64,000 nt of DNA, from positions 16,089 to 80,088 of the forward strand of contig NZ_CAMVPN010000001.1 of assembly GCF_947169325.1 (NCBI RefSeq), written 5' to 3'. Below, in pieces: positions 3,395 to 33,084 of this stretch. The notes under the pieces were generated by a model. It saw only the letters and a program-made list of their open reading frames with translations. It was not told the DNA's origin and ran no database searches. The translations under genes were made by a program, and so were the position numbers. The stretch's first letter is position 1; each line of letters opens with the position of its first letter. This stretch comes from an uncultured Methanobrevibacter sp. Lineage in GTDB: Archaea; Methanobacteriota; Methanobacteria; Methanobacteriales; Methanobacteriaceae.

Positions 3395-3607
3395 ACTTGA
3401 TTCCTCCAGTAAAAAATTATCTTAAACTGATATGTTATTTGAACAACATCCATATTAATGTTATCCATTAAATATGATTTTCAATTGTTTTTGCAATTTG
3501 GACCCCATTATTTAGACAATCGGGCAATATGTTGTCAGTGATGCCGATTGCATAAATCCGGCTTCAAGCAAAAACCTTATTTTTATGAAACTAGATATAA
3601 TATATTC

Positions 3608-12912: not shown

Positions 12913-12920
12913 AGATTTAA

Positions 12921-15235: not shown

Positions 15236-15424
15236 ATGGATACCGACAACATTGAAAACATTGAAAAGAGACTTGAGGATGCAACCGCTCTTAAATCAAA
15301 TCTTGAATCAAAGCTGGTAAAGCTTGGAGATTCACCGAGAGCGGAAATCTTCGAAGTCCAGCTGAACAAAATCAACGAACTTATTGACCATCTTGAAAAA
15401 GAAAAAATCGAGCTTTCCAAATGA
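15236..15424 (+). CDS. small coiled-coil protein (62 aa), translationally coupled to its neighbours
   Basis: It starts 2 nt after the Nudix stop, and its stop overlaps the next start (ATGA at 15421..15424). The sequence is heptad-like and charged: IEKRLEDATALKSNLESKLVKL...LNKINELIDHLEKEKIEL. Confidence 0.5.
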   Translation: MDTDNIENIEKRLEDATALKSNLESKLVKLGDSPRAEIFEVQLNKINELIDHLEKEKIELSK

Positions 15425-18357
15425 ATCCGGAAAATATACTCAAGGGCGCCGAGACCGCATTCATAAACCAGCTTTCAGGCTCAAGCGAGGATCTACGCCC
15501 CAAGCTTTTATACAATGACAGAAACAACAAGGTCATAAACTCCATAAGAGACGAGCTTAGGGGGTGTGACGAGTTCATCATTAGCTCCGCTTTCATCACC
15601 ATGGGAGGTATCACTCCTTTGCTTGAAGAGTTCAGGTATCTTGAAAGCAACAACATCAGGGGGAAAATCCTCACCACTGATTATCTCAACTTCACAGAGC
15701 CGAAGGCATTGCGAAAGCTAGCCCAATTCAAGAACATCGAGGTCAGGCTTTACAGCCAGGAGAAGGAAGGTTTCCACACCAAGGGCTACATCTTCAGAAA
15801 GGATGATGTCTACAAGGGAATTGTCGGAAGCTCAAACCTTACCATGAACGCACTTACAGTCAACAAGGAGTGGAACGTTGGTTTCACATCACTAGCCGAA
15901 GGGGAAATGCTTTTCCAAATCAAGAAGGAATTCCAGACACTTTGGGATGAGGCTGATGATTTAGACGATGCCTTAACAAAGTATGAAAAGATTTATGAGG
16001 ACAACAGACGCTTTACAGACATCCGGAAAATCACGGAAAGGATTAGGGATGACAATGTCACGCTCACTCCCAACTACATGCAGGAGCAGTTTCTTGAAAA
16101 CGTAAGGACTCTTGTAAAGCAGGGTGAAAACCGTGCAATCCTCGTATCTGCCACCGGAACGGGCAAGACCTACGCATCAGCGTTTGCAGTCAAAGACTTC
16201 AAACCCAAACGTTTCTTATTTTTGGTTCACAGGGAACAGATTCTAAAGCAGTCCATAAAGGCATACAAGCATGTCTTTGACGATCATGAAAACTTCGGCC
16301 TTTTAAGCGGAAACTCCAAGGACTATGACAAGCCTTATCTTTTCTCAACCATTCAGACCATGTCCAAGGAGGAGGTCTACACAAGATATCCAAAGGATTA
16401 CTTTGACTACATCATAATTGACGAGGGCCACAAGGCAGGGGCTCTCTCATACATCAATGTCGTAAACTACTTTGAACCGAAGTTTCTTTTGGGAATGACC
16501 GCTTCACCTGAGCGTACTGACGGTTTCAATATCTATGATTTGTTCGACAATAACATTGCCCATGAAATCAGGCTTCAGGAAGCCTTAGAAGAGGATCTGT
16601 TATGTCCTTTCCATTATTTCGGAATAACTGACGTTGAGTTTGAAAACGGCGAAATCGATGATAACTTTACCGATTTCAACTTGTTAGCATCAGATAGGCG
16701 TGTCGACTATTTGATAGAAAAGGCAGACTTCTACGGATACTCAGGCCCAAGAAGAAAGGCATTAGTCTTCTGCTCAAGAAAAAAGGAAGCAAAGCTTTTA
16801 TCGGAAAAGTTCAACCAGCGAGGATACAAATCCGTTGTCCTCACAGGTGACGACTCACAGGAAAAGCGCCAGGAAGCCATCGACAGGCTCACCAATGACG
16901 AAAACCCCGACAAGCTTGAATTCATATTCACGGTCGACATCTTCAATGAAGGGGTTGACATTCCAGAAATCAATCAGGTGCTTCTCGTAAGGCCGACAGA
17001 GTCTCCAATCATCTTCATCCAGCAGCTCGGAAGGGGACTTAGAAAGTACGAGAGCAAGGAGTATGTGGTAATCCTTGACTTTATCGGAAACTACAAGAAC
17101 AACTTCATGATTCCGATTGCCCTTTCAGGGGATCGGACCTATGACAAGGACAGAATCAGGAAATATCTCATTGAGGGAAACAGAATCATTCCTGGGGCTT
17201 CATCAATCAACTTCGATGAGGTTTCCAAAAAGCGCATATTTGATTCAATCAACAACACGTCATTTAACAGGAAGGCTCTCTTTAAGGATAAGTACATGAA
17301 CTTAAAATACAAGCTGGGCCGCATCCCTTCATTATATGACTTCGCCGTCAACGGAGACTTCAATCCTGAAATAATCCTCAACCACAAGGACTTCCCGACA
17401 TATCATGATTTCCTCACACAAATCGATGAGGATTACGATTCACACATTGACAATACCGATGCTCTCAAGTTCATCTCCAAAAAGCTGCTTAAGGGAATCC
17501 GCCCCCATGAGCTTGTCATTTTAGAATGTCTTAAATGCAACGGGTACTTCACATTCAGCCAAATTGAGAAGTGTCTTGAGGACAGCTTCTCTCTTAAAGA
17601 TCAGTTCGAGTCCATAAAGGGTGCAATCAATTTCTTAAGCCTTAACTTCTATCTCAAGGAAAAGGGCGAGGGATATCAGGCAAACACCATAGAAAAGCTT
17701 GTTGAAAACCCTGAAAACCTCTTTTTCAACTACGACGATGAGCCATTCGCAAAGCTGAAAGACAATCCGGACCATAAGTTTGAAATATCTCCGGGCTTTA
17801 GAGAGGCCCTTACAAGCCAGACATTTACAGACCACCTTAACGATGCCCTCAAATACGGATTTTTCAAATACCAGAACGTCTACAGGGACGAAAAGCCATT
17901 CAGGCTTTATGAGAAATACTCCCGTGAGGATGTCCTGAGGCTGATGAACTGGAAACGATTCATGAACGGCCAGAACATCGGAGGATATAAAATCAAATAC
18001 AATACCTGTCCGATATTCGTAACCTACAATAAGGCTGAAGACATATCAGAGACAATAAACTACGAAGACCACTTCATCAACAAGGAAACCTTCAACTGGA
18101 TGAGCAGAAACAACAGGAAAACCTCTTCACCTGAACTTGAACCGTTGATTAACTACAATGGCGTGGACACCCAGCTATTCATCCAGAAAAGCAACGATGA
18201 GGGAATTGAGTTCTACTACATCGGCAAACTGACTCCGCTTGCATACAAGCAGGTTTACAGAAACATCGACGGTAAAGACCAGCCTATCGTCAACTTCAGA
18301 TTCAAGCTTCATCCTGAAGTTAAGGACGAAATCTATTCATATTTCGTAAATGATTAG
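15421..18357 (+). CDS. PLD(HKD)-nuclease / SF2 helicase / C-terminal DUF3427-like fusion; candidate SauUSI-family type IV (modification-dependent) restriction enzyme
   Basis: The HKD motif is GFHTKGYIF...GIVGSSNLTMNAL. Helicase motif I is ILVSATGTGKTYASAF and motif II is IIIDEGHKAG. Later helicase motifs include LGMTASPER, FTVDIFNEGVDIPEINQV and QQLGRGLR. A ~350-aa C-terminal region follows. At 978 aa, the domain order matches my recollection of SauUSI. Confidence 0.75.
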   Translation: MNPENILKGAETAFINQLSGSSEDLRPKLLYNDRNNKVINSIRDELRGCDEFIISSAFITMGGITPLLEEFRYLESNNIRGKILTTDYLNFTEPKALRKLAQFKNIEVRLYSQEKEGFHTKGYIFRKDDVYKGIVGSSNLTMNALTVNKEWNVGFTSLAEGEMLFQIKKEFQTLWDEADDLDDALTKYEKIYEDNRRFTDIRKITERIRDDNVTLTPNYMQEQFLENVRTLVKQGENRAILVSATGTGKTYASAFAVKDFKPKRFLFLVHREQILKQSIKAYKHVFDDHENFGLLSGNSKDYDKPYLFSTIQTMSKEEVYTRYPKDYFDYIIIDEGHKAGALSYINVVNYFEPKFLLGMTASPERTDGFNIYDLFDNNIAHEIRLQEALEEDLLCPFHYFGITDVEFENGEIDDNFTDFNLLASDRRVDYLIEKADFYGYSGPRRKALVFCSRKKEAKLLSEKFNQRGYKSVVLTGDDSQEKRQEAIDRLTNDENPDKLEFIFTVDIFNEGVDIPEINQVLLVRPTESPIIFIQQLGRGLRKYESKEYVVILDFIGNYKNNFMIPIALSGDRTYDKDRIRKYLIEGNRIIPGASSINFDEVSKKRIFDSINNTSFNRKALFKDKYMNLKYKLGRIPSLYDFAVNGDFNPEIILNHKDFPTYHDFLTQIDEDYDSHIDNTDALKFISKKLLKGIRPHELVILECLKCNGYFTFSQIEKCLEDSFSLKDQFESIKGAINFLSLNFYLKEKGEGYQANTIEKLVENPENLFFNYDDEPFAKLKDNPDHKFEISPGFREALTSQTFTDHLNDALKYGFFKYQNVYRDEKPFRLYEKYSREDVLRLMNWKRFMNGQNIGGYKIKYNTCPIFVTYNKAEDISETINYEDHFINKETFNWMSRNNRKTSSPELEPLINYNGVDTQLFIQKSNDEGIEFYYIGKLTPLAYKQVYRNIDGKDQPIVNFRFKLHPEVKDEIYSYFVND

Positions 18358-18897: not shown

Positions 18898-21210
18898 TTA
18901 CTTTTTAATTTTTGAAGTCTTTTTAATGGTGTCCTTTAAATAGGTTGCCTGATAGGTGACTTTCTTTCCTACCTTAAGCTTTTTTAAGACACTTGATTTG
19001 ATGGTTACTTTTGCAACACCTTTTTTATTGGTTTTTGCTGTGTATTTCTTGCCATTGAATTTGAAAGTGACCTTCTTTTTCTTAAGGTATTTTCCATCAA
19101 CTTTAGCCAGGCTTGCAGTCAAGACAAGCTTTTTGGCGGATTTTTTAACGGTAGCGGATTTAAGGCTCACAACATGTTTCACAGTCAGTTTTGAAACGAC
19201 TGTCTTTTCCAGTGACTTCAATGTCAATGTGTATGTTCCAGGAGTCTTTGTCACTTTAAAGCTTACAACACCCTTACTATTGGTTTTTGGTGTTTGCAAT
19301 ACTTTGTTATTAATCAGAATAACCACCTTGGCTCCAACAGCAATCACTCCCTCTTTTTCATAAACGGTAATGATGCACTGTTTGTTTGATGTATATGCCA
19401 GATTAAGGTTTTTGACAATAATCTTTGCAGGAATTATGATGATTGTAACGTTTGACTCCTTTGTAAATCCGTTGTAGTTGTCGTCACCTGAATATACGAA
19501 TGTGAATACAATATCGCCCTTAAACTCGGACAGGTCAATTGAAGCGATACCTTTCACGATTTTGGCAACTCCAACCATGTTTCCGTCAACAAAAACGGCT
19601 AAGGTACCTGTGGCGTCTGATGGGAATCTTAAGCTGACCACTCCGTCATCATCGGTTTGCATCTCTTCGTGGACTATTGTTGAGTAGTCATCAGGAGAGC
19701 TGATTTGAGGTTTGCTGTTCCCGATTAAAACGCAATCGAAGATTATTCCTCCATAGATTGCGCCTCCTCCGGCATTAGCGTTATTGTTTTTAAAAGCAGA
19801 CTCCAAAACTCTTGCATCGGCGCCACTGCCGATGTATATTGCTCCACCGTATTTTCCGGAAGTGCAGCTTTTAAAGCTGCAGTTGTCAATGCTTCCTTCG
19901 GATTTGTCTTCAAAATAGATTGCGCCTCCATTGTATTTGGCACTGCATTTTTCAAAGGTGCAGTTTACAACATGAAGCCCTGTTCCGTTTTCATATTCAT
20001 TTTCCTCTTCAAGGCCTTCAAAGAATTCGAAATCATGTGCATAATTATAGATTGCGCCTCCGTCTTCATTGCTTACGCAATTTATGAAAATGCAACCGAT
20101 GAGATTTATTTTATGGTAATCGTCAATTTCTATAGTGGGTTTGGATTTGCAATCCTTAAAGGTGCAGTTGGTCACATTTCCTCCCCTGCCCCAAAATCTG
20201 ATGGCATTATTGATGCTGCCTTCAAAAGTGCAGTTGGTAATGTTGCCTATGCAGAAGTAATTGCATCGAACCCCACTATACTTGCCGCTGAAATCACAAT
20301 TTGTGAGATTTCCAGGACCTGTAAACTCCATGTCTCCACCATAATTCTCTTTAGTGTTCACGCCACAATCAATAAAGGAACAGTCTGCAATGGTTCCTGA
20401 ACCTTCAATTGCATTGCCGTATATTAGCTCACAGCCATCTCCGCAATGGGAAAAGGAACAGTTCCTGATGAGGGTGGAGTCCATATTGATGGCTCCTCCG
20501 TATACCAGATTGGAGTTATATCCGCAATATGTGAAAGTACAGTTGATTATTCTATCATTTTCTGAGCTTATTGCACCTCCATAAACCAAATCGCAACCGT
20601 AGCAGCAGTTCTTAAAGCTGCAATTCACAACATCAGTATTTTCCACACTTAAAACGCCGCCATAAATTATGTTTTTGGTGTTATACATGCAGTTTGTAAA
20701 GCTGCAGTTTATAATCCTGCCGGAATTCAGGGATACGATGCCGTCATAGAGGCATTCTTCGCCATCGGAGTTGTAATTGGAGCAGTCATTGAAACTGCAA
20801 TTTATTACGCTGCAGCCGCTTTCTTCAAATTTGCATGCTGTAACCGGAGCATTTATGAATTTAATGTTTTTCAATGCCACATTTTCACTTGAAACGTCGA
20901 ATATTCCTGTTTTTGAATTGGCATCAATTGTATGGCCCTTGCCGTCAATGGTCATTGCCTTTGAAATTGCAATGGAGTTGGTTGATTCCGTATTCTTATA
21001 GTCCTTATCCAGCTCCAAAACACCTCCGGGGGCAGTATTTCCAATCAATGTTGATAAATCGGAAAATGAGCCTGAAGAAGCGTTTTGAGTTAAAACTTCA
21101 TCCGATACGTCACTGATAATATCGGTATCATTCAAATCACTGGCTGAAACATTTGCGATAGTGAAAGCGCAGATGATCAGGCATATAATCAAGAATTTCC
21201 TGTTTAACAT
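18898..21210 (-). CDS. adhesin-like protein: signal peptide, Cys-rich beta-helix repeats, Ig-like domains, lysine-rich C-terminal module
   Basis: The signal peptide is MLNRKFLIICLIICAFTIANVSASD. The head module is MTIDGKGHTIDANSKTGIFDVSSENVALKNIKFINA. Repeats include NCSF.NC....YGGAI and GGAIY. The C-terminus is KLTVKHVVSLKSATVKKSAKKLVLTASLAKVDGKYLKKKKVTFKFNGKKYTAKTNKKGVAKVTIK...VTYQATYLKDTIKKTSKIKK. Confidence 0.85.
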   Translation of the reverse strand: MLNRKFLIICLIICAFTIANVSASDLNDTDIISDVSDEVLTQNASSGSFSDLSTLIGNTAPGGVLELDKDYKNTESTNSIAISKAMTIDGKGHTIDANSKTGIFDVSSENVALKNIKFINAPVTACKFEESGCSVINCSFNDCSNYNSDGEECLYDGIVSLNSGRIINCSFTNCMYNTKNIIYGGVLSVENTDVVNCSFKNCCYGCDLVYGGAISSENDRIINCTFTYCGYNSNLVYGGAINMDSTLIRNCSFSHCGDGCELIYGNAIEGSGTIADCSFIDCGVNTKENYGGDMEFTGPGNLTNCDFSGKYSGVRCNYFCIGNITNCTFEGSINNAIRFWGRGGNVTNCTFKDCKSKPTIEIDDYHKINLIGCIFINCVSNEDGGAIYNYAHDFEFFEGLEEENEYENGTGLHVVNCTFEKCSAKYNGGAIYFEDKSEGSIDNCSFKSCTSGKYGGAIYIGSGADARVLESAFKNNNANAGGGAIYGGIIFDCVLIGNSKPQISSPDDYSTIVHEEMQTDDDGVVSLRFPSDATGTLAVFVDGNMVGVAKIVKGIASIDLSEFKGDIVFTFVYSGDDNYNGFTKESNVTIIIIPAKIIVKNLNLAYTSNKQCIITVYEKEGVIAVGAKVVILINNKVLQTPKTNSKGVVSFKVTKTPGTYTLTLKSLEKTVVSKLTVKHVVSLKSATVKKSAKKLVLTASLAKVDGKYLKKKKVTFKFNGKKYTAKTNKKGVAKVTIKSSVLKKLKVGKKVTYQATYLKDTIKKTSKIKK

Positions 21211-21410: not shown

Positions 21411-22244
21411 ATGAAAATTAGAAATGTTATTTTATATTTGATTATTTTTGTATGCAGTCTGTTGAATATGGATTCTGATTTCGAAGAGTATACACATTTG
21501 GAAAATAAGGATGTGGCCGTGATTAAAAAAGAGGATTTGCCTGAGGAATTCACCGACATGGCTTATGAAACTGTGGTTGATTTCATTCAAAAGACTAGAT
21601 GTCTTGATAAAGAATGGGCATTATTTTTTGATTATGTTACTGGTGAAATTCTTAAATGTGTTGTTGGAGAGCATGATAATGTTGATGTAACATGGGAGGA
21701 TGATGAATTTGAAGGTAAACAGATATCTTCTATTCATAATCATCCGAAAGAGGTTTTGTCTCCTCCATCAGGTAAGGATTTTGGAATCTTAAAAAGAGAT
21801 TTTGAGGATTATGAGTTGATTGCAGGATTTGAATATTTTTGGATTTTTAAAGTTAATGGAATACATGAAGGGTTAATTAATGAAATGTGTGGTGCTTCAG
21901 ATGCCGCTTTCATTTCCTCTTTTTTACATTGTATTAGCAGGTACAATGATAATGATGTGTTTAATAGAATGCATGATTTGAGATATGGCGGCGAATTATC
22001 AAAATATATAAATAATAAAAACATAAAGGATATACAATTAACTAGACTGGAGTATGATAATATGACAAACAAGTTAAATACTGCAGAATATGGTTGTCGA
22101 AAGCGAATAACTAATCCTGAAGTTATAAAATTCGCTAAAGAATTTGAAAAATGTCCATACACTCCAAGTGGTAAGGATATCATGTATGCATTCTACCAGA
22201 GTATTGGCATGGACGTTGAATATGATGAAATTTTTGCAGATTAA
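21411..22244 (+). CDS. hypothetical protein with a possible JAB/MPN (RadC-like) metalloprotease motif
   Basis: The segment SSIHNHPKEVLSPPSGKDF fits the HxH-x(8)-S-xx-D JAMM-like pattern (compare RadC HNHPSG..PS..D), with upstream Glu candidates (KEWALFFD). The N-terminal 19 aa are hydrophobic, and an alternative start is the ATG at 21468. The gene is AT-rich. Confidence 0.4.
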   Translation: MKIRNVILYLIIFVCSLLNMDSDFEEYTHLENKDVAVIKKEDLPEEFTDMAYETVVDFIQKTRCLDKEWALFFDYVTGEILKCVVGEHDNVDVTWEDDEFEGKQISSIHNHPKEVLSPPSGKDFGILKRDFEDYELIAGFEYFWIFKVNGIHEGLINEMCGASDAAFISSFLHCISRYNDNDVFNRMHDLRYGGELSKYINNKNIKDIQLTRLEYDNMTNKLNTAEYGCRKRITNPEVIKFAKEFEKCPYTPSGKDIMYAFYQSIGMDVEYDEIFAD

Positions 22245-22280
22245 GGGAGTTTCACTCTCTATTTTACTTTTTTTTTAGAC
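22245..22280 (+). terminator. hairpin GGGAGT-ttc-ACTCTC followed by a T-run
   Basis: It lies directly after the TAA at 22242..22244 and is followed by tattttacttttttttt. A near-identical element lies at ~22797..22838 after the duplicated small ORF. Confidence 0.4.
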
Positions 22281-22555
22281 TGGCATGCTTTCAGCTAAGA
22301 TTAGCATCTGATAACAAGAAGAAATCATATTTTTGAGCTAATTATGGTAGAGAGTATGGATTTTAAAAGCCAAAGGATTTCATAGGAATATAATTGATGA
22401 TGTGAGAAAAGCATCATTGTTTTCTTATATTTTCACATTAACGCAATGTAAACACTTTGAAAAACTCGAAAATGAATGAATGTGAAGATTCATTGTATGA
22501 GGGAATTATCAAATTTTATTAATAATAAAAACATAATGATATACAATTAACAAAA

Positions 22556-22789
22556 ATGGAGTATGTAACAATGTCTATTGATTCTAAATCCTGTACCGCA
22601 GAATTTGAACATTTTGAAAGCATTTCTAATCCGGATGATTTCTCAGCAATTCAAGATTTCATAGATAATCCTGATTTGGATGAAAATAAGCAAAGAATCA
22701 CTAAATTTTTTGCAAAAATGAATGTTGAAATAAATGCTGATGAGCTGGCTAATGAAATGCCGAAATATAAAAATCTCCTTAATTATTAA
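22556..22789 (+). CDS. small hypothetical ORF created by partial duplication of the 3' end of the upstream gene
   Basis: The 5' flank and start (attaataataaaaacataatgatatacaattaacaaaaatggagtatg) parallel 22005..22060 (ataaataataaaaacataaaggatatacaattaactagactggagtatg). The downstream hairpin and T-run are also duplicated. Confidence 0.35.
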   Translation: MEYVTMSIDSKSCTAEFEHFESISNPDDFSAIQDFIDNPDLDENKQRITKFFAKMNVEINADELANEMPKYKNLLNY

Positions 22790-23063
22790 AAAATGAGAGT
22801 TCAACTCTCTCTATTTTACTTTTTTTAGACTGACATGCGTTCAGGTGAGATTGGCATCTGATATATATTGGCATTCGCCTTTTACCTCATCAATGCAAAT
22901 GCTCGCCGTTAATGTCAATGCCGTATGATAATTCTTGAGGCATCAGATGGACATGCCAATTTAATCAACCGACTTTTCAATTTAACTCATGCCTTGATTT
23001 GTCCTCTGCAATGTGAAAATTAATGTAATATGAACTCCAAAACTATTATCACAGGTGCTTTTC

Positions 23064-26000
23064 ATGGACGTTAAAGACAATTCGCAAAAAACCCAAAACT
23101 TCAGCTATCTGGATGATTTAATCCACAGCGCAAAAACTGAAATCAAACTGGATGCAGACATAAAGTTCAGCCCGGAAGATGAGGCTGAATACTCAGAAGG
23201 CATAAAAATAGACGTTGACGGCATCACAATTGATGCAGGCGGACACACAATCGATGCCGGTGCAAGGATATTCGACGTAACCGCAGAAAGCGTCACAATC
23301 AAAAACGTCCACCTCAACACACTTGAAAGCGCAGTATATGTCCATGAAAATGCAGTATTGAAACTTGAAAATGTCTACGGGGCAGGCACAATAAATGACG
23401 GAACCCTTATTCTGATTGAATCCTACGACGACCCGCAGATTATAAACAACGGTCTTTTATACGTCTCGGAGGATGAAATCCACACAGGAATTGCAAACAA
23501 CGGCGAAATCTCACGCATCAGAAAGCTTAAAAATGAGGAGTCAAACTTCACATCTCTCAAGAGGATGATTGACGATACCTACGCCAGTCTGCTTAAGGAG
23601 GACGCCATTAAGGAGGATGCACTCATAAGGTTCAAGGGTGATGTTGTTCTCGACATGGCTGGTGATGAGTGCTTCAGCTTCAGGGAAGGCTTCGTTCTTG
23701 ACCGTGGAAACATCATAATCGACGGTCAGGGATACTCGATTGACGCAAACCATTTCACAAGGCTTTTCACCATCTCGGCTTCAAATGTGACAATCAGAAA
23801 CCTCACACTTAAAAACGCAAGGGCGGATGAAGGCGGAGCCGTCAAAAACACAGGAAAGGTTAACCTGTCATCGCTTACAATTGAAGGCTGCAGCCAGACC
23901 CAAAGTGGAGCCATATTTTTCAATGAAGGAGAAATCACGGCCGAAAGGATATTCATGCTCTCAAACAGGGGCGGGATATACAACAAAAGCGGAAAGGTCA
24001 CTTTGGACTACATAAACTTCACAGACAACTCCGCTGTCAATATCATCATGAATATGGGCGAAACAATAGTCATGAACTCAAGGTTTGTCGGCAAAAACGC
24101 CATTGACAATGACAGTGTGCTTAAATTATGCAACAACAACTTCGACGATGGACACATCCTCAACAGAAAGAATTCCCTTGTAAAGCTCTACAGAAAGACT
24201 TCACAAAAGTCAGAGGAAATCCACGAATCCACAAGCCTTGAAATCACAAACAAGGGAAAGATCAAGGCATACAACTTTGAAGGAAACATCATCCCTGCAA
24301 CATCAATAACCGAAGGAGGCGAAGTGGAGCATTTCACGCAGGACATCGTCAGAAGGGATGAGTTTTTCACCTCAAACTACGAATGGATTGAAATCAAGCT
24401 CATAGTGGGCTCAACCCTCAGGGACATGTTTTCGGAGAGAAACTACTTTTCAAACCATGTGTTTTCAGAACTTCAGGACTGGTGCAAGAAAAGGAGGATA
24501 CTTCTCAGAAACATTGACCTCAAATGCGCATCAAAAAAGAGCATAGACATCATAGATTCCTATATGGATGATGACAAATCATTTTTCCTCTGCTTTATCG
24601 GCCAGAAGCAGGACTGGTATTCGAACCTTGAAAAGCAGAGCGTATCGGCAACCCTGCATCCTATGGTGAGGATTCTTCGAGACGTTTCAAACGTGAAATT
24701 CGAAAAAAGGACATTATTCCTCTTCAGGCAAAACCCATTTGACAGCGTAAATCTCACGCAGGAGCAGAAATCAATATACTTCGGCAAAGCAGAAGACAGG
24801 TCAGAGGAGATTAAACAGTCAGTAACTGATGAGCAGTTCACGGCCTTCGACTATACCTGCCAATGGAACGGCGAGGGAATAGTGGCCGAGCTGGCCTCAA
24901 AGGACGGTGTGAGCGGAAGGCTTGAGAACTTTGAGCATGATGGCAAGCCCCTCAAGGACCTGATTTTAGATGAGCTCAAAAGACAGATTGAAGCCGCATT
25001 TCCAAACCAAAAGCCATTCAGGTCAGAGGACATCTACTTTGAGGATGCGATGATTCACAATCTTGAAATTGAATTCCGCTCAAGGAGCCTCACAGGAAAG
25101 AGACAGAAACTGAGGGAACTTGACTCCAAATTCTTAAATCATAAAAACAAGATCCTTGTGATTCACGGAGGCGAAGGGGTCGGAAAAAGCACACTTCTTG
25201 CAAAATGGCATCAGACACTTAAAAAGGACGGCCACAAATCAATAATCAGATTATGCGAAGCTACCCTTAAAAGCAGCACGTTTCAGGATTTATACCTGAG
25301 CATAGGCTCTGAAGCGGGAATATTCAACGGGGAGGAGGAAAAGATACGCAGTTCCGTCTTTGAATTCGACTATGATTTCTTCAGCAAGCTGAAGGATAAG
25401 GGAGTAGAGGTTCTCATCCTGTCGAATGTGGATAAGATAGGCAAGTTCGCTCCGACAAGGGTTCCGGAAGATTTCTACATTGTGCTTTCATCAGAAGACG
25501 ATTATGACATAGGAGTTGCCCATGACAGATTGGCTTTGGACGATTTGAAGTCAAGCGAAGTTTCATACGAGTTCATAGCGCCATATCTGGGCATCAATCT
25601 GGTCGAGATGAACAGACGTCAGAAAAACACGATTGTGGGAATGCTCAAGTCAAAATCCCCTCTTTTCGCAAGGATTGTGCTCAACGAGATGGGATGCCTC
25701 GAGTCCTATGACGAGATAGTCTCGAAGATTTCAAGCTTCGGCGAGACAGTATCGGACGCATTCAAGCGCCTTATTGAAATACTTAAGGAAGACAACATCT
25801 ACGGCGAGGAGTTCATAGCAAGCGTATTGACCAGACTTGCATTTGCCGGAAACGGACTGAGCGACAGGGAACTGGTTTCAAACCCAAACCAGCAGGAGCT
25901 TCTTAAGATATTCCTCAACAGGATTGAGGATTACATCTACATGAAGGACGACAAGTACTATCTCAGGTATGAGGAGTTCAGAAATACGATAATTTCCGAA

Positions 26001-26657
26001 TACAAAGGCCTTGAGGAAGATACAAGACGTGACCTGGTGGACCTTTACAAGGCGTCAATGCTGATGTCTGAAGGGGAGCTGTATCCTTTGATTGTTGGAA
26101 GTGACGATCTGCTCCATCAGCTGCAGGAGCTTAAGGATTATAATGGCATTCTTGAAGTGTTTAAAAATGACGAGCTTTTAAGCAAGGTCGAGCCGGATGA
26201 GTATGGATTGGAGTACAAGGGAGGAACGTTTTACCCTTATTCCGCCGACAGGCTCAAGCTGAATATAGATGATGCTAATGTCTTAAGGCAGATATCATTG
26301 ATGCTTCTTGAAAAGACTGATGTGAGACTCAGGGATGCTTTAAACAGGTACAGCGAACCAAGGTATGATTTAAGCTATAAGTTCCGCCAATACGACCCTG
26401 AAGAGTTTGCAAGATACAGGGATTCCTTTTACGAAACCACCTCCTATTTCAAGGCGGCTGCAACTTATGCAAAGGAAAGTTTAAAACTCGAAAAGGACAC
26501 TTCCTTAAATGACGAGTTCAAAAAGAAGTTCAATAAAGATTCAAACTATGTAAAATCATTCCTGATGAAGACTGCCGATAGCGGAGCCGACAATCTGGGA
26601 TTGTCCCACAATATCGAAGACCTTGCACTTGACGCATTGAACGCATCAAAATTCTAG
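23064..26657 (+). CDS. STAND-type protein: N-terminal cytoplasmic adhesin-head-like beta-helix modules (x2), degenerate DUF4062-like domain, P-loop NTPase with canonical Walker A, helical C-terminal region
   Basis: There is no signal peptide (MDVKDNSQKTQNF...). Two adhesin-head-like modules are present: GIKIDVDGITIDAGGHTIDAGARIFDVTAESVTIKNVHL and GNIIIDGQGYSIDANHFTRLFTISASNVTIRNLTLKNARADEGGAVKN. The DUF4062-like segment is IKLIVGSTLRDMFSERNYFSNHVFSELQDWCKKRRILLRNIDLK...FFLCFIGQKQDWY (~24381..24640). Walker A is ILVIHGGEGVGKSTLLAKW, with the Lys codon at 25185..25187. The track start is GTG 23055 and the first ATG is at 23064. Confidence 0.75.
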   Translation: MDVKDNSQKTQNFSYLDDLIHSAKTEIKLDADIKFSPEDEAEYSEGIKIDVDGITIDAGGHTIDAGARIFDVTAESVTIKNVHLNTLESAVYVHENAVLKLENVYGAGTINDGTLILIESYDDPQIINNGLLYVSEDEIHTGIANNGEISRIRKLKNEESNFTSLKRMIDDTYASLLKEDAIKEDALIRFKGDVVLDMAGDECFSFREGFVLDRGNIIIDGQGYSIDANHFTRLFTISASNVTIRNLTLKNARADEGGAVKNTGKVNLSSLTIEGCSQTQSGAIFFNEGEITAERIFMLSNRGGIYNKSGKVTLDYINFTDNSAVNIIMNMGETIVMNSRFVGKNAIDNDSVLKLCNNNFDDGHILNRKNSLVKLYRKTSQKSEEIHESTSLEITNKGKIKAYNFEGNIIPATSITEGGEVEHFTQDIVRRDEFFTSNYEWIEIKLIVGSTLRDMFSERNYFSNHVFSELQDWCKKRRILLRNIDLKCASKKSIDIIDSYMDDDKSFFLCFIGQKQDWYSNLEKQSVSATLHPMVRILRDVSNVKFEKRTLFLFRQNPFDSVNLTQEQKSIYFGKAEDRSEEIKQSVTDEQFTAFDYTCQWNGEGIVAELASKDGVSGRLENFEHDGKPLKDLILDELKRQIEAAFPNQKPFRSEDIYFEDAMIHNLEIEFRSRSLTGKRQKLRELDSKFLNHKNKILVIHGGEGVGKSTLLAKWHQTLKKDGHKSIIRLCEATLKSSTFQDLYLSIGSEAGIFNGEEEKIRSSVFEFDYDFFSKLKDKGVEVLILSNVDKIGKFAPTRVPEDFYIVLSSEDDYDIGVAHDRLALDDLKSSEVSYEFIAPYLGINLVEMNRRQKNTIVGMLKSKSPLFARIVLNEMGCLESYDEIVSKISSFGETVSDAFKRLIEILKEDNIYGEEFIASVLTRLAFAGNGLSDRELVSNPNQQELLKIFLNRIEDYIYMKDDKYYLRYEEFRNTIISEYKGLEEDTRRDLVDLYKASMLMSEGELYPLIVGSDDLLHQLQELKDYNGILEVFKNDELLSKVEPDEYGLEYKGGTFYPYSADRLKLNIDDANVLRQISLMLLEKTDVRLRDALNRYSEPRYDLSYKFRQYDPEEFARYRDSFYETTSYFKAAATYAKESLKLEKDTSLNDEFKKKFNKDSNYVKSFLMKTADSGADNLGLSHNIEDLALDALNASKF

Positions 26658-27078
26658 GCGTAATGATGTGTATGTTTTCTGGATGTTTCAATCGACATTA
26701 ACATGGCAGAATTGGTCATGTTGAAGGCATTTCATGTCACTTCTTGAATAGAATTTTTTTCCATTAATCAAGTTTCCGGCCTGCAATTCAACATTTTCAA
26801 GAACATGTTTCATGGTTGATTTAGGAGGTGTCATGATTTTTCATCATATATGTGGGGGCCATGATTTCAGGCCATGTTTAAAAAATTCATTTTGACTTTC
26901 TTTTTCATTTTCAGGGATTCTGCCTTAGTTATAGTATGAAAATTTTTTGCGAGTAAATCGGAATTTTTCACATTTTCCCCCTTTGGAGTGATGTGGAATC
27001 TCCGTTTTCAAGTTGAAAAATAATTTTTCAAAAAAGGTTCAAATGGGCTTCGTTTTTCAAAAATAGGCCGTCAGACGT

Positions 27079-27091
27079 TTACACTTGAAAT
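27079..27091 (+). other. ORB-like 13-mer TTACACTTGAAAT (copy 1)
   Basis: The exact 13-mer recurs at 27671..27683, and in reverse orientation at 44160..44172. It resembles the archaeal mini-ORB TTCCAGTGGAAA and, from memory, the Methanothermobacter 13-bp origin repeat. Confidence 0.4.
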
Positions 27092-27670
27092 TCACCTTTA
27101 AATTTTCATTTTACTGGGGGTCGGTATTGTGAAAAATTTTGAAAATGAACTCAAAAATGAAGAAAATTTTAGTGAATTGCATTCGCAAAAATATTCAGTG
27201 GAGATTATTGGGGTACTAAATGTCGATTAATTTTCAATGGTGCATTTGCCGAGTTGGAAGTGATTTTTGATTTAAAATTCTCAAATGAGATTATAATGCT
27301 TTCAATCAGTTAAAAACACTATTTCGTTCAATATCTAGAATTGAATTATTTTCCATTAATCTCTGTTTTCAAGCTTCAACCTCGAATATCCAAAAATCTC
27401 CGATGTGGGATGTTAATGTCAAATTCCATCTGGAGGATAATTGGTGAATTTGATATTTTCAATTTATCAAATTTTTGATTTTTCAGTCTTTAATTTCAAT
27501 TTCAGGGTGTTAATGTCAGTTACTGTATGGAAAAATTTTGCCAGTAAATCCTGATTTTTCACATGTTTTCCATTTTGGGCAGTGTTAATGTGGATTTTTG
27601 AAAATTAGGAATTCGTATTGGAAATGTCATTCAAAATCGTTTAATTTAAAAAAATAGGACTCTTCGGCCT

Positions 27671-28785: not shown

Positions 28786-31700
28786 ATGAATTACAGAAAG
28801 ATAATGCTGGCAACGTTGCTGTTGCTAGCGGTTTTAACAATTGGGGCTGTCAGCGCAGCAGGTGATGTTGACGTTGTGGCAGCTGATGACGACGCTGGAG
28901 ATGTTATCGAATCTCCAGTTGATGAAGAGGTCGTCGCCGACGGCATCGAAGAGGATGTTATGGGCGACGTGCCTGAAGAGAAATACAATGTGACTATGGA
29001 GGTCACAGTGTATGACGAAGTATGTTATGATGAAAATGTCCAATTTTGGATTTCCGTTAATGGCGAAGGTCCTGGTGAGGAATTCGACGTTGGCGGTGAG
29101 ATTGAGGTTTATTCAAACGGCGAGCAGATCGATACTTTGGACGTCGAATATCCTAACTTCTATTATTTCTTCAACCGCTTCGGAGAACATGACTTCAGGG
29201 CGGTGTATACCGGAAGCGAACTGTTCAATCCGGCTGAAATCACCTTCAAATATAATATAACAAACTCCATGTATCGCATTTCAACAAACTATGAAGTCGA
29301 GTATGGAAGTCGCTATTTCTATGTTTATAGTCCGGTATTGAATCAAAGCGATATTGTAATTACCATAAACGGCAAAAAATTCAATGTAATTAGCGATGAG
29401 GAAATGGGAGAATATTACTGCAATGCATCAGAATTGAATTTCGGATTGAATACAGTACACATCTATTATCCGGGCGATAGGAAATTCGGTGAATATTCTG
29501 CCGATGCTAATATCACAGTGAAAGCGCCTATCAAATCTGAAGGAAGCGGCATCTGGGGAGAACCTTACAAGTATTATGTCAATCTGCCTAAGGATGCAAC
29601 AGGTACTTTGAGTGTCTATGAAATTGATTATAATGGGGAAGACGGTGAAGTTTACAATCTACTTGGCAGCGGCGAAGCAAAAGACGGTGTCGCCACTGTT
29701 GTATTGAACGATTTGAAAGTGGGCGTAAACCAGCTTTTCGTTTCCTTCAACGGCTCCTATGAGGTTCAGGAAGAGTATTATTCCATGTATATCTCTCCTC
29801 TAGTCAATCTTCCAAAATCAATGATTGCCGGCAGTGAGGAATATATTACAGTATCTGTCTCTGAAAATGCAAATGGTCTTGCAGAAGCATTTTACCTGCT
29901 TAGTCAGGACTATGAGTTTGAGGGGGATTATGTGGTTTTCGCTACTGCAGAAGTTGTAAACGGTCAGGCTAAAATCCCATTGTCCAGTTTAAACAAAGGC
30001 GAATATTCAATTGTGGTGAATTATTACTATGATAAGGTGAATAAGGATGATTTTGACAGAACCTGGCACACCATGTATGTGGTCGACAAATATGACATCA
30101 ACGTTAACATAACATATGTTACAGAAAAAGCAATAAAGGACAATCCAAGCAATTATGTCGAATTCACCATAGCAAGATATGCCGACGGTAATCTCACATT
30201 GTATGTGGATGGAAAAGCGGTGGAAACCACCCAAACAGAGGGTTATGACTTTACAAGATACTTCTACCTCAACACCACAGGACTCGCCCTGGGTGAACAC
30301 TCACTTTCAGTTAACTTCACAAGCGAATATCAGGGAATGTCCTCAGATTCAGCAAAATTCAATGTGGTTTCAGGAGCAATCTACATTCCGGACAGGATGG
30401 TTCTAAACAACAGGACCCACGTCTCAGCAAACGACATAGAAGTTCGCGTAAATGATGATGCCAAAGGAACAGTCACAATCCTGGTTGACGGCAAGACATA
30501 TCTCACAGAAAAGATTGACGCTGGTGCTACCGAACAGACCCAGTACGTATATTCATTGGCTGAAATTTCCCGTGAAATGCACAACGTGACTGTAATCTAT
30601 GACGATGACAGATACGGAATCGCCACACAAAGCAAGGAGGTCTTTTTCGGATATGCAATTTCAATGGAAGGAAATTACCTCTATGGTGAAGACAACATCA
30701 TCGAAGTCTATGTGCCAAGCGATTTGGGAAACGGCGAGTTGACAATAACTGTTGACGGAAAGATAATGGACTTTGTGAGAAACTCATCAAAATTCACAGT
30801 CAATCCGTCCAGGCTCTCAATTGGAAACCACACAGTCGTGGCCAAATACTCAGGTGACGATTTCTATCCTGCCGATGAATTCAAATATGTCCTTGAAGTT
30901 TACCCTGAAATTCAGCTGGTATCAAATAATATGCTTGTTGGAGATGATAATGGAACCTATCTGATGTTGCCTGATGATGCAAAAGGCAAGTTCAATGTAA
31001 AGGTCATAAAGGAAACAGAAGATGAGGAAGGATTTATGGTGAATGTCGTAGTAGACAGCAAACTCGTTTCATTTGAAAACGGCAAGGCATATTACTCATT
31101 CGCCAATTTAAGTATTGGGGAATATAATTTCGAGGCTTCATACACCGGTGATGATTATGACGTTGAGGAAGTATCAACCTATATTTGGATTGACTGTGTA
31201 GACTGGGGCAGATATTACACAAACCTTGGTGATAACAAGACAATATCCTTCGTTTCAGCTGAAAAGGGACCTGGTCAATTGAGAATTGTTCTTTCAATAA
31301 TCACAGATGATGATAGTGAGTTTGAAAATGTATACAAAACTGTCGTTGTTCCAATCGTTGACGGCAGGGCCAGCTATTCATTCACAAGTCTGCCGGCCGG
31401 CTACTATCATGTCTTTGCAACCGAAGAAACTCTCGACGGAGAAGCTAAAGATTTCCAAAGAGGGGCCTATTTCCGTGTTCAGTATCCATATGGTCAATCC
31501 AGCATTGAAAACTCAGAGATCGGCAAGATTGAACCTGTCAGCATAGAATTACCTTCCGATGCCAATGGAAAAGCCACAGTGACAGTATATGCAAACTACT
31601 CAAAAGGCGAACCTGACGCAATCAAGACATTCGAAGTCACAGTCGACGGCACAATATCATTTGACTTAAACGAAATAATTGCAGAACCTGGCTTCTACGG

Positions 31701-33084
31701 ATACAGCGTTATCTACAATGGAAACTACGGTGAATTCGAAAGATATTTCCAAGGATTCAGAGTCTCCACACTACCTAAGGTTGCAGCTCCTGAAATTGTA
31801 ATCGGCGTTGAGGACAGTGTCGTTGAAGGAAGCGACCTTGAAGTTGAAGTGACAGTTGAAGGCGCAACCGGTACTGTCCGCATAAACGGTGAGGAAAAAC
31901 TTCTAAACAACAGCAAAGCTTCAGCAACCCTCAAAAACGTTAGCGTTGGTGAGTTGCTGATTACAGTCGATTACCTGGGCGATGACAGATACCTGAACTC
32001 AACCAACTCCGCTAAAGTCACAGTATATGCCAAAAAGGACGCTGAATTGACAGCTACTGGTGCAGACATCACTGCCGGTGACGTTGCCATAATCAGCATC
32101 TCCATCAGCAAGAATGCAACAGGCAAAATCACAGTAAACGGTGAGGAAGTAGCAGTAGTCAACGGAGCCGCCAAATACGAAGTAAAAGACCTGACTGCAG
32201 GCAACTACACATATGCAGTCGCATACGAAGGTGATACATACTTCAAGGCGGATGAGAAAACCGCAATGGTTAAGGTTTCAAAAGCCAAAGCAAACATCAA
32301 TGTCACAGTAACCGAAAAGGTAAAGTTCGGCGATGACGTGGTCATAAACATAACCTCTCCGAAATCCGAAGGAAAGATTACACTGACACTCGACAAGGTC
32401 AATTACAAGACTCCTGTTGACAGTGGAGCTGCAAGCGTTTCAATCCCTAACCTTAAGGTTGCAAGCTATGATGCTTTCATATCCTTTGAAGGGGATGCAA
32501 AATACCTGGCTGAAAACAGAACAGTTTCATTTACAGTATTCACTGACCCTGAAATCCAGGCCAAGGACACAAGCGTCCAATACACTGCAAACGCCAAATA
32601 CTCAGTTACAGTGTACGGCACTGACGCAAACCCTGCTCCAAACACTGAAGTCATCTTCAAGATTGCAGGAAAACAGGTCGGAAAAGCAACCACCAACAGC
32701 AATGGTGTTGCAACCTACACTGTCAAAAACGTTCCGGGCACATACAAGATCAGCGCAACAGCTCTTGGAAAAACACAAACCAAAAAGCTGACAGTAAAAC
32801 ACATAGTGACCATCAAGACCACAAAACTTAAAAAATCGGCCAAAAAGCTTACTCTGCAGGCAACATTGGCTAAGGTCAACGGCAAATATCTTGCTAAAAA
32901 ATCAATCACATTCAAAATCAACGGCAAAAAGGTGGCAACTGCAAAAACCAATTCAAGAGGTGTTGCAAAAATCACCATAAAAAACCCTAATGTGGTTAAG
33001 AATGCTAAAGTCGGCAATAAGATGACCTATCAGGCGACATACTTGAAGGACACTGTCAAAAAGACTGCCAAAATCTTAAAATAG
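28786..33084 (+). CDS. giant surface protein with signal peptide, acidic linker, ~12+ Ig-like repeats and a lysine-rich C-terminal module (adhesin-like)
   Basis: The signal peptide is MNYRKIMLATLLLLAVLTIGAVSAAGD. The linker is D/E-rich. Recurrent repeat signatures are LP.DA.G...V.VDG......V.NG.A...L..L..G.H.V...Y.GD..Y. The C-terminus is KLTVKHIVTIKTTKLKKSAKKLTLQATLAKVNGKYLAKKSITFKINGKKVATAKTNSRGVAKITIK...MTYQATYLKDTVKKTAKILK. Confidence 0.9.
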   Translation: MNYRKIMLATLLLLAVLTIGAVSAAGDVDVVAADDDAGDVIESPVDEEVVADGIEEDVMGDVPEEKYNVTMEVTVYDEVCYDENVQFWISVNGEGPGEEFDVGGEIEVYSNGEQIDTLDVEYPNFYYFFNRFGEHDFRAVYTGSELFNPAEITFKYNITNSMYRISTNYEVEYGSRYFYVYSPVLNQSDIVITINGKKFNVISDEEMGEYYCNASELNFGLNTVHIYYPGDRKFGEYSADANITVKAPIKSEGSGIWGEPYKYYVNLPKDATGTLSVYEIDYNGEDGEVYNLLGSGEAKDGVATVVLNDLKVGVNQLFVSFNGSYEVQEEYYSMYISPLVNLPKSMIAGSEEYITVSVSENANGLAEAFYLLSQDYEFEGDYVVFATAEVVNGQAKIPLSSLNKGEYSIVVNYYYDKVNKDDFDRTWHTMYVVDKYDINVNITYVTEKAIKDNPSNYVEFTIARYADGNLTLYVDGKAVETTQTEGYDFTRYFYLNTTGLALGEHSLSVNFTSEYQGMSSDSAKFNVVSGAIYIPDRMVLNNRTHVSANDIEVRVNDDAKGTVTILVDGKTYLTEKIDAGATEQTQYVYSLAEISREMHNVTVIYDDDRYGIATQSKEVFFGYAISMEGNYLYGEDNIIEVYVPSDLGNGELTITVDGKIMDFVRNSSKFTVNPSRLSIGNHTVVAKYSGDDFYPADEFKYVLEVYPEIQLVSNNMLVGDDNGTYLMLPDDAKGKFNVKVIKETEDEEGFMVNVVVDSKLVSFENGKAYYSFANLSIGEYNFEASYTGDDYDVEEVSTYIWIDCVDWGRYYTNLGDNKTISFVSAEKGPGQLRIVLSIITDDDSEFENVYKTVVVPIVDGRASYSFTSLPAGYYHVFATEETLDGEAKDFQRGAYFRVQYPYGQSSIENSEIGKIEPVSIELPSDANGKATVTVYANYSKGEPDAIKTFEVTVDGTISFDLNEIIAEPGFYGYSVIYNGNYGEFERYFQGFRVSTLPKVAAPEIVIGVEDSVVEGSDLEVEVTVEGATGTVRINGEEKLLNNSKASATLKNVSVGELLITVDYLGDDRYLNSTNSAKVTVYAKKDAELTATGADITAGDVAIISISISKNATGKITVNGEEVAVVNGAAKYEVKDLTAGNYTYAVAYEGDTYFKADEKTAMVKVSKAKANINVTVTEKVKFGDDVVINITSPKSEGKITLTLDKVNYKTPVDSGAASVSIPNLKVASYDAFISFEGDAKYLAENRTVSFTVFTDPEIQAKDTSVQYTANAKYSVTVYGTDANPAPNTEVIFKIAGKQVGKATTNSNGVATYTVKNVPGTYKISATALGKTQTKKLTVKHIVTIKTTKLKKSAKKLTLQATLAKVNGKYLAKKSITFKINGKKVATAKTNSRGVAKITIKNPNVVKNAKVGNKMTYQATYLKDTVKKTAKILK

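Follow-up and report, generated by a model that had tools for sequence, protein, structure and literature searches.

A Methanobrevibacter STAND protein that joins two beta-helix modules to a degenerate NIR (DUF4062) domain

We analyzed a 64,000-nucleotide stretch of the genome of an uncultured Methanobrevibacter sp., a rumen or gut methanogen (contig NZ_CAMVPN010000001.1, positions 16,089 to 80,088; here called the window), in which the gene at positions 23064 to 26657 encodes a fusion of two right-handed beta-helix modules ("heads"), related to those of adhesin-like proteins (ALPs), with a degenerate NIR (DUF4062) domain, a STAND NTPase core and a helical C-terminal domain. The residues on which NADase activity depends in characterized NIR proteins are lost, and the gene, found in a small Methanobrevibacter family of common origin, is under purifying selection and sits in a defence island. 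In our judgement the chances are about even that the product is a single-gene cytoplasmic NLR-like (STAND) receptor in which the beta-helices at the N-terminus took over from the NADase the part of output or adaptor.

Architecture of the fusion and loss of the NADase residues

The open reading frame (ORF) can start at a GTG (23055) or at an ATG (23064), from which we count 1197 residues. RefSeq holds the same protein as WP_298521298.1, annotated "ATP-binding protein [uncultured Methanobrevibacter sp.]" and encoded on a contig of 158.7 kb. The most hydrophobic 12-residue Kyte-Doolittle window scored 0.01 within the first 45 residues and 0.75 within the first 100, compared with >3 in secreted ALPs, and no 19-residue window of transmembrane level was present anywhere in the protein. 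An M1-C search, Pfam and hydropathy gave no M1-C/Big_1 anchor, Big domain or transmembrane anchor. A hidden signal peptide or upstream exon was ruled out by an in-frame stop only 10 codons before the ATG, by the abundance of stops in all three upstream frames, and by the homologous fusions, which begin at the same point behind in-frame stops. From the lack of signal peptide and transmembrane segment, together with the ATP-dependent core, we infer a cytoplasmic location.

Only one Pfam family passed its threshold: PF20585 (Pectate_lyase_5, a putative pectate lyase-like adhesive domain), which matched two stretches and scored 33.2 bits, the cut-off being 24.3. A hidden Markov model (HMM) built from the first head matched residues 11 to 102 and 181 to 268 (independent E values, i-E, in Table 1) as well as the secreted ALPs encoded at 18898 to 21210 on the minus strand (4e-21) and from 59907 on the plus strand (5e-22). 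BLAST of each head module against the former gave E values of about 5e-5. An AlphaFold2 (AF2) model of residues 1 to 445, built with 15 sequences, had a mean predicted local distance difference test score (pLDDT) of 85 and a predicted template modeling score (pTM) of 0.82. It consists of an N-cap helix with a short beta-helix (residues 10 to 152), a long helix (162 to 178) and a longer beta-helix (186 to 424). Foldseek retrieved for the heads right-handed beta-helix proteins only (tailspikes, polysaccharide lyases and autotransporter passengers), weakly, with E values of about 1e-3.

Behind the heads, the Walker A motif GGEGVGKST (residues 702 to 710) is intact. Residues 677 to 792 matched AAA_22, AAA_16, NPHP3_N, nSTAND6, NB-ARC and NACHT in Pfam, all under the cut-offs, while close relatives exceed those of NB-ARC or NACHT. 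With the full model, Foldseek identified a STAND-TPR protein (6mfv, E value of 1e-7), Avs3 with terminase (8dgc, 1e-6), the Dark apoptosome (8y6q) and the Roq1 resistosome (7jlv), all with a probability of 1.0. In the Walker B strand, VLILSNVDK, a Ser replaces the canonical Asp (LILDG.E in headless relatives) and only the +3 Asp is kept, a departure that the first-pass annotation had missed. These motifs vary across the fusion clade: in the fusions P0003, P0004 and P0048 (P numbers denote protein clusters at 90% identity) Walker A is G.EGIGKNT, in which Asn takes the place of Ser/Thr, and the Walker B strand reads SDID in P0046 and P0194. Residues 832 to 1197 are helical in the full-length AF2 model. 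HMMER with residues 441 to 1197 retrieved 1360 relatives at E≤1e-3. The nearest headless ones, of 800 to 890 residues, combine DUF4062, AAA_22/NB-ARC and the same helical C-terminal domain, which is neither TPR nor WD40 by Pfam, and the distant ones are DUF4062-NACHT-WD40/TPR proteins.

Two preprints of 2026 identify the DUF4062 or NIR domain as a TIR-like NADase, which serves an Avs2 protein and further defence systems as N-terminal effector and shows activity also in human TEP1; one catalytic Glu is essential, PsAvs2 E108Q, KpSwz E97A and TEP1 E1008A all being inactive (10.64898/2026.09.04.749371, 10.64898/2026.05.01.722283). In the bacterial NIR-STAND proteins studied so far, a phage protein is recognized by the sensor at the C-terminus, the NTPase oligomerizes and the clustered NIR domains hydrolyze NAD+, resulting in abortive infection. 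Pfam PF13271 (DUF4062) was not reported in our protein at E≤1 but matches its relatives P0003, P0046, P0047 and P0049-54. A profile of the family matched the TIR-like crystal chain of TEP1 (11gz_A) with an E value of 1.2e-30, and the segment of our protein alone did so at 1.6e-4, as two separate pieces with the middle left unaligned. Since it aligns with the DUF4062 domains of relatives and with 11gz_A although missed by Pfam, "degenerate" is the correct description. In the full-length AF2 model, residues 442 to 598 alternate strands and helices, as in a putative flavodoxin-like alpha/beta fold, with a pLDDT of only 58 to 83.

TEP1 R908, R954 and R976 map onto Arg at positions 15, 61 and 83 of chain 11gz_A, and this consistent mapping places E1008 at residue 115 of the chain, where S-V-T-E-M-E has its second Glu. 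Where relatives have S-[IV]-T-E-M-E-I-E-H-A, our protein has L-E-K-Q: the position of the catalytic Glu (TEP1 E1008, PsAvs2 E108, KpSwz E97) is a Gln, and a deletion of some 21 residues directly precedes the motif. A simple deletion of the catalytic motif was considered and discarded, as the alignment with TEP1 shows an upstream deletion plus a Glu-to-Gln change at the catalytic position itself. In addition, DLRWG has become DLKCA, a 7-residue deletion in the BB loop removes the equivalent of R954, and GSRYG/GQRRGW is replaced by GQKQDW. Two of the three active-site Arg positions are lost. Judged by these experimentally validated residues, the NADase of our protein is dead.

The architecture is as the first-pass annotation had described it from the letters alone. 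It had claimed about 440 N-terminal residues free of a signal peptide, containing two modules that align with the heads of secreted ALPs and followed, in this order, by a degenerate DUF4062-like domain, an intact P-loop of a STAND-type NTPase and a helical C-terminal region. Hydropathy, upstream stops and homologue starts agree on the first point, and Pfam, HMMs, alignments, AF2 and Foldseek bear out the others. Of the three results named beforehand as fatal to the proposal, none was obtained: there is no signal peptide or exon, the similarity to ALP heads is significant, and a STAND fold is present.

Family members, origin of the heads and selection

Heads joined to a STAND core were found in about 10 clusters (at 90% identity, out of 5.8 billion), conserved at 32 to 94% identity: P0001, which holds our protein, P0002, P0045, P0195, P0194, P0003, P0004, P0048 and the N-terminally truncated P0046. 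Cluster P0003 includes ADC47149.1/WP_012956098.1 of M. ruminantium M1, annotated as "adhesin-like protein" or "DUF4062 domain-containing protein." A junction motif, G[KRI][ILVM][KR]A[YF][NDG]F, is present in every fusion with a complete N-terminus and in 0 of 84 other beta-helix proteins. Neither the species genomes of GTDB nor the metagenomes of JGI yielded a fusion when scanned by pattern, although M. ruminantium M1 encodes one; the scans are therefore insensitive and no evidence of absence, and we judge rarity from the protein databases only.

In a tree of the NTPase and C-terminal regions, the fusions and the headless P0047 formed one clade with 100% bootstrap support (all trees were neighbor-joining, on short or moderate-sized alignments). 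P0003 (with M1), P0194 and P0046, which retain SITEMEIEHA, are basal. Members with a dead NIR domain formed, together with P0004 and P0048, which lack the domain, a subclade that also had 100% support; at the catalytic position the dead domains have Gln (our protein), Lys (P0002) or nothing alignable (P0045 and P0195). These tree positions, read with the NIR states, suggest that the heads were added, the NADase was then inactivated, and finally it was deleted.

The best matches to residues 1 to 445 (P0005-P0036, 40 to 58% identity over the N-cap) were proteins of 700 to 1900 residues without a hydrophobic N-terminus, and signal peptides occurred only among the weak matches. These leaderless proteins contain several tandem units of the form NFKYLDDLIHSG...IDGNGHTIDA, and many begin with MGFFDK[VIL]KKA. 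Their ORF starts are bounded by in-frame stops; an M1-C/Big_1 anchor was found in none of them and a transmembrane segment only in P0019, at the C-terminus. Residues 7 to 371 of the fusion are collinear with the N-terminus of the leaderless P0018, P0028 and P0013, so that the two-unit arrangement was copied as one block, and the M. ruminantium M1 fusion retains an MGFFDKLKNAL start. When 143 modules were placed in a neighbor-joining tree, the 15 from fusions all fell in a clade with 83 leaderless and four signal-peptide modules, leaving 38 of the 42 signal-peptide modules outside. Bootstrap support for the leaderless origin was only moderate: the nearest non-fusion neighbor was leaderless in 89% of module-by-replicate cases, and a clade with six or fewer signal-peptide modules was recovered in 65% of replicates. 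In this phylogeny, of the kind that the first-pass annotation had proposed, the fusion copies nest among leaderless and not among secreted modules; the idea of a surface-protein domain moved inside the cell, unlike the homology to ALP heads, was not supported. Leaderless genes next to fusions are only 27 to 36% identical to the heads and rank low, for which reason we reject a recent gene conversion between the two.

The leaderless family shares the MGFFDK.KKA N-terminus, which could be an amphipathic helix or an unrecognized export signal, and a C.F.DN.P.D C-terminus, and some members are fused to an LMWPc phosphatase (PF01451). Its genes lie in arrays adjoining an EF-G paralogue, LMWPc and GlmS (P0005-P0036; loci L006, L011 and L003, L numbers denoting the loci compared). 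In M. ruminantium M1, only 62 of 105 "adhesin-like proteins" were predicted to be extracellular with an anchor (PMC2812497), a count compatible with a sizeable non-surface subset.

Compared with a 94%-identical allele (L010), the ratio of nonsynonymous to synonymous substitutions (dN/dS) was 0.13 overall. It was lowest in the NTPase (0.04), followed by the two heads (0.10 and 0.08), the C-terminal region (0.15 to 0.16) and the NIR-like domain (0.29), values that rest on a single allele pair. All domains are under purifying selection and none is decaying; no positive selection on the heads was seen in this pair. The fusion is the fastest-diverging gene of its block, being 49% identical between the window and the syntenic L001, where three conserved neighbors other than ALPs, the restriction endonuclease (REase), dCTP deaminase and thiamine pyrophosphate enzyme, are 86 to 94% and the ALPs 53 to 73% identical.

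Genomic context

The fusion gene sits in a defence island (Table 1). Upstream, a second NIR-STAND retains both Glu of the catalytic motif (IIESE), and its product is therefore probably an active NIR NADase receptor. The type IV REase adjoins the fusion also in L001 and L011. Loci L001/L002, which carry P0002, are syntenic with the window, and L011 (P0045) has the same NUDIX/type IV REase flank, with the fusion amid four leaderless beta-helix genes. In L003 (P0004) a leaderless beta-helix gene of 248 codons lies just downstream. The M1 fusion follows an EF-G paralogue, with a NIR-STAND-WD40 gene 6 kb upstream and an ATPase_2 gene, LMWPc and GlmS nearby; the backbone of this locus carries a leaderless beta-helix array in another Methanobrevibacter. 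No partner gene or operon was conserved across five loci (the window, L001/2, L003/4, L005/8/9 and L011), nor was a genetically linked helper NLR found, the other NIR-STAND genes being 6 to 14 kb off and in two loci only. The ORFs of 72 and 277 residues upstream of the fusion had no Pfam or PADLOC match and no homologue in the other fusion loci.

Table 1. Features of the fusion gene and its surroundings (window coordinates)
Feature	Position	Strand	Evidence
Whole gene: two beta-helix modules, dead NIR (DUF4062), STAND NTPase, helical C-terminal domain	23064-26657	+	ORF, Pfam, RefSeq, AF2
Head module 1 (residues 10-152): N-cap helix NFSYLDDLIHS (23097-23129), IDAGGHTIDA, short right-handed beta-helix	23091-23519	+	PF20585, module HMM i-E 1.2e-28, AF2 pLDDT 80-95
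Second N-cap and linker helix NFTSLKRMIDD... (residues 161-178)	23544-23597	+	AF2
Head module 2 (residues 186-424): longer beta-helix, PMP-type GGA[IV] and FxxN repeats	23619-24335	+	Module HMM i-E 1.8e-20, AF2, Foldseek
Junction motif GKIKAYNF (residues 398-405)	24255-24278	+	Alignment of fusions, motif scan
Degenerate NIR/DUF4062 (TIR-like NADase) domain (residues 441-600)	24384-24863	+	Alignment with relatives and TEP1
STAND NTPase core (residues 691-830); Walker A 25167-25193, Walker B strand 25410-25436	25134-25553	+	Sub-threshold Pfam, alignment, Foldseek
Helical/winged-helix arm and C-terminal helical (sensor-position) domain (residues 831-1197)	25554-26654	+	AF2, Foldseek, homology to headless relatives
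Conserved noncoding element of ~200 nt, 3' of the STAND gene; second copy 27494-~27700	26903-27117	+	Comparison with other fusion loci
Second STAND: DUF4062 (31.8 bits), HTH_NWD1, NPHP3-type TPR, 1231 residues	5285-8980	+	Pfam
PDC-M26A (160 bits), then DUF2357 and PD-(D/E)XK (PDDEXK_7) protein	11128-14798	+	Family matches
Type IV methyl-directed REase, PLD-helicase-DUF3427 (718 bits)	15421-18357	+	PADLOC

Several noncoding features accompany these genes. A direct repeat with 88% identity (22247 to 22320 and 22807 to 22863) stands right after the stops of the 277-residue (21411 to 22244) and 72-residue (22571 to 22789) ORFs, for both of which it may serve as terminator or 3' element. The ~200-nt element is 73 to 78% identical between species, with invariant blocks AGTTAYTGTATG..TGCCAGTAA.TCGG.ATTTTTCACAT and TTTTCAAAAATAG...TTACACTTGAAATGYACCTTTAA, and gave no match in Rfam. 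Other copies occur in L010 (4247 to 4462), L011 (14144 to 14325 and 16647 to 16829) and L003 (5145 to 5312 and 7084 to 7328). In L011 and L003 it precedes leaderless beta-helix genes or a DUF285 gene by 45 to 90 nt, and in both loci a copy separates the fusion from a leaderless beta-helix gene. The element is probably a promoter or leader. The two copies of the window are orphans in an ORF-poor gap of 2.1 kb downstream of the STAND gene. This gap and the ALP that follows it (28786 to 33084, plus strand; 1432 residues, rich in Big_3_5) are missing from the syntenic L001, which indicates an insertion of about 6.4 kb in the window relative to that species. At the edge of the window (3 to 3421, minus strand), a signal-peptide ALP with three head modules that runs off the window start is split in two frames overlapping at 2405 to 2612, by a frameshift, as a pseudogene or through an assembly error.

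Role of the heads and comparison with known receptors

STAND effectors are normally N-terminal and the sensor usually C-terminal. In the scenario that we prefer, some 430 residues, comprising two PMP-type right-handed beta-helix units, would have been joined once to the N-terminus of a NIR-STAND in one Methanobrevibacter lineage, their source being the N-terminal part of a leaderless "adhesin-like" paralogue and not the secreted surface ALPs. The NADase would then have become dispensable, and sister lineages would have dropped the NIR domain wholly. A trigger, for which the helical C-terminal domain common to the headless relatives is the likeliest binding site, would lead to nucleotide-dependent oligomerization, and the clustered heads would act as output or adaptor, a multivalent binding platform with an effect other than NAD+ depletion. 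We favor an output or adaptor role because the heads occupy the effector end, because the original effector became dispensable only after their arrival, and because the sensor-position C-terminal domain was kept from the headless relatives and has diverged as much as the heads. We infer a role in defence from the protein family, the island and the fast divergence.

Several points weigh against this reading. With Ser instead of Asp in Walker B, it is questionable whether the NTPase still cycles. We know of no toxic or enzymatic output of beta-helix adhesive modules, and a binding role consequently fits a sensor as well as an effector. The full-length AF2 model (pLDDT 76.9) has a pTM of 0.46, so low that its inter-domain geometry is unreliable. 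PADLOC and NCBIfam assigned the fusion to no family, the best PADLOC match being mad8 at an E value of 0.002. Besides the moderate bootstrap support for a leaderless origin of the heads, the leaderless family may undergo nonclassical export through its conserved MGFFDK N-terminus.

The first-pass annotation had seen in the heads a possible decoy or sensor. In a revised form, this would make them an integrated bait: copies of a leaderless host family that a virus or invader binds or modifies, engagement of which releases the STAND switch, with the output coming from oligomerization itself or, by analogy with plant sensor NLRs with integrated domains (NLR-IDs), from an unlinked helper. PMP-type beta-helices are binding modules and the heads derive from a multigene host family. 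The dead effector and noncanonical Walker B resemble those of plant sensor NLRs, fusions adjoin leaderless beta-helix genes in L011 and L003, the M1 locus shares synteny with an array of leaderless beta-helix genes, and a second NIR-STAND lies upstream, apparently active and 14 kb away in the window and 6 kb away in M1. Against this, the heads are under strong purifying selection, have diverged no more than the C-terminal domain and have not been kept similar to the adjacent leaderless genes, their identity and rank being as low as given above. No partner gene is conserved over the five loci, and the sensors of characterized Avs and NLR-like STAND proteins are C-terminal, the position that here is occupied by a domain common to headless relatives. 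Nor did we find a viral protein related to the leaderless family or known to target it: tblastn of the heads against 50,697 phage records gave no match, and neither did PHROGs or IMG/VR. The related idea of a viral origin or mimicry of the heads was discarded, with no sequence match and only a generic beta-helix likeness in Foldseek against viral and PDB libraries (E values of about 1e-3). The decoy proposal thus obtained no positive support, and we consider a bait possible but rather unlikely.

The heads might instead belong to a non-immune housekeeping switch, an assembly, chaperone, export or regulatory ATPase docking on leaderless proteins by homotypic beta-helix contacts. Colocalization of fusions with leaderless genes, the ~200-nt element between them, the disappearance of a NADase death effector and purifying selection throughout are in keeping with it. 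We nevertheless find it distinctly improbable, given the defence-island setting beside a type IV REase here and in L001 and L011, the intact NADase motif of the basal fusions and the fastest divergence in the block. Besides, a sporadic, rare gene (about 10 clusters) is unexpected for a factor serving a large family, and the module HMM found no leaderless beta-helix gene near the fusion in the window. As for a decaying gene or artefact, be it a chance fusion, a pseudogene or a secreted ALP with a miscalled start, the degenerate NADase motif, the noncanonical Walker B and the plain "adhesin-like protein" label of the M1 homologue could be cited for it. However, the 1197-codon ORF is intact and conserved over the whole family at 32 to 94% identity, dN/dS is low overall and in each domain (0.04 to 0.29), in-frame stops just upstream of the start in all loci leave no signal-peptide exon, and there is no transmembrane segment or anchor domain. 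Pseudogene and misannotation are essentially excluded, and we attach hardly any probability to this explanation.

NIR-STAND receptors (as of 2026) and beta-helix ALPs have each been described before. In full-text searches we met neither their fusion, a rare architecture of which the first-pass annotation had likewise known no description, nor a NIR-STAND with a pseudo-NADase, nor an account of the leaderless ALPs as a branch of their own. The family amounts to a natural experiment in which a host-derived beta-helix was placed before the effector, after which the enzyme first became inactive and then disappeared, with the protein still under selection. Should the heads be output or adaptor, they would represent a new, nonenzymatic type of effector for prokaryotic NLRs; should they be bait, an integrated-decoy receptor outside plants. 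The analysis also sets a large leaderless "adhesin-like" branch apart from true surface proteins, which is relevant to the targeting of vaccines at rumen methanogens, since this assumes exposed ALPs. The question is testable, as one member, ADC47149.1, occurs in the cultivable, prophage-bearing M. ruminantium M1.

Among known systems, the closest are the NIR-STAND/Avs proteins (PsAvs2-NIR; human TEP1, NWD1 and NPHP3 share the module), with the same succession of DUF4062, NACHT/NB-ARC-like NTPase, helical arm and C-terminal domain in the sensor position. They are likewise single-gene, fast-diverging and located in defence islands. The fusion differs in the ~430 beta-helix residues before the NIR domain, in the change of Glu to Gln, the loss of the BB loop and of Arg residues and the replacement of the Walker B Asp by Ser, in a C-terminal domain that Pfam does not recognize as TPR or WD40, and in its archaeal host. 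With the leaderless beta-helix family (MGFFDK.../NFKYLDDLIHSG; PF20585, PF13229 and Chlam_PMP) it shares the N-cap and beta-helix unit, collinear over residues 7 to 371, and the lack of signal peptide and anchor. Those proteins, however, are pure tandem beta-helix arrays of 700 to 1900 residues, some with an LMWPc phosphatase, and have neither an NTPase nor GKIKAYNF. The secreted Methanobrevibacter ALPs (18898-21210 on the minus strand and 59907 on the plus strand) have a homologous PF20585-type head in common with the fusion, but their heads are more distant and they carry a signal peptide and wall-anchoring Big_3_5/Big_1 (M1-C) domains for a surface location.

In plant NLR-IDs (RGA5, Pik-1 and RRS1) a pathogen effector binds or modifies the integrated domain, whereas the viral searches gave no homologue of the heads or candidate ligand for them; the fusion also has no linked paired helper, and its added domain stands at the extreme N-terminus, before the original effector. 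Both nevertheless combine a domain from a host family with a STAND receptor and with degenerate effector or NTPase motifs. It is a doubtful but attractive proposition that archaea have here their first NLR in which a domain of host origin is integrated, a STAND receptor with a pseudo-NADase whose beta-helices, copied from a cytoplasmic family, serve as bait or homotypic adaptor, sensing or relaying an attack on that family. If so, the series from active through dead to absent NIR would record a split between sensor and executor, as in the paired NLRs of plants.

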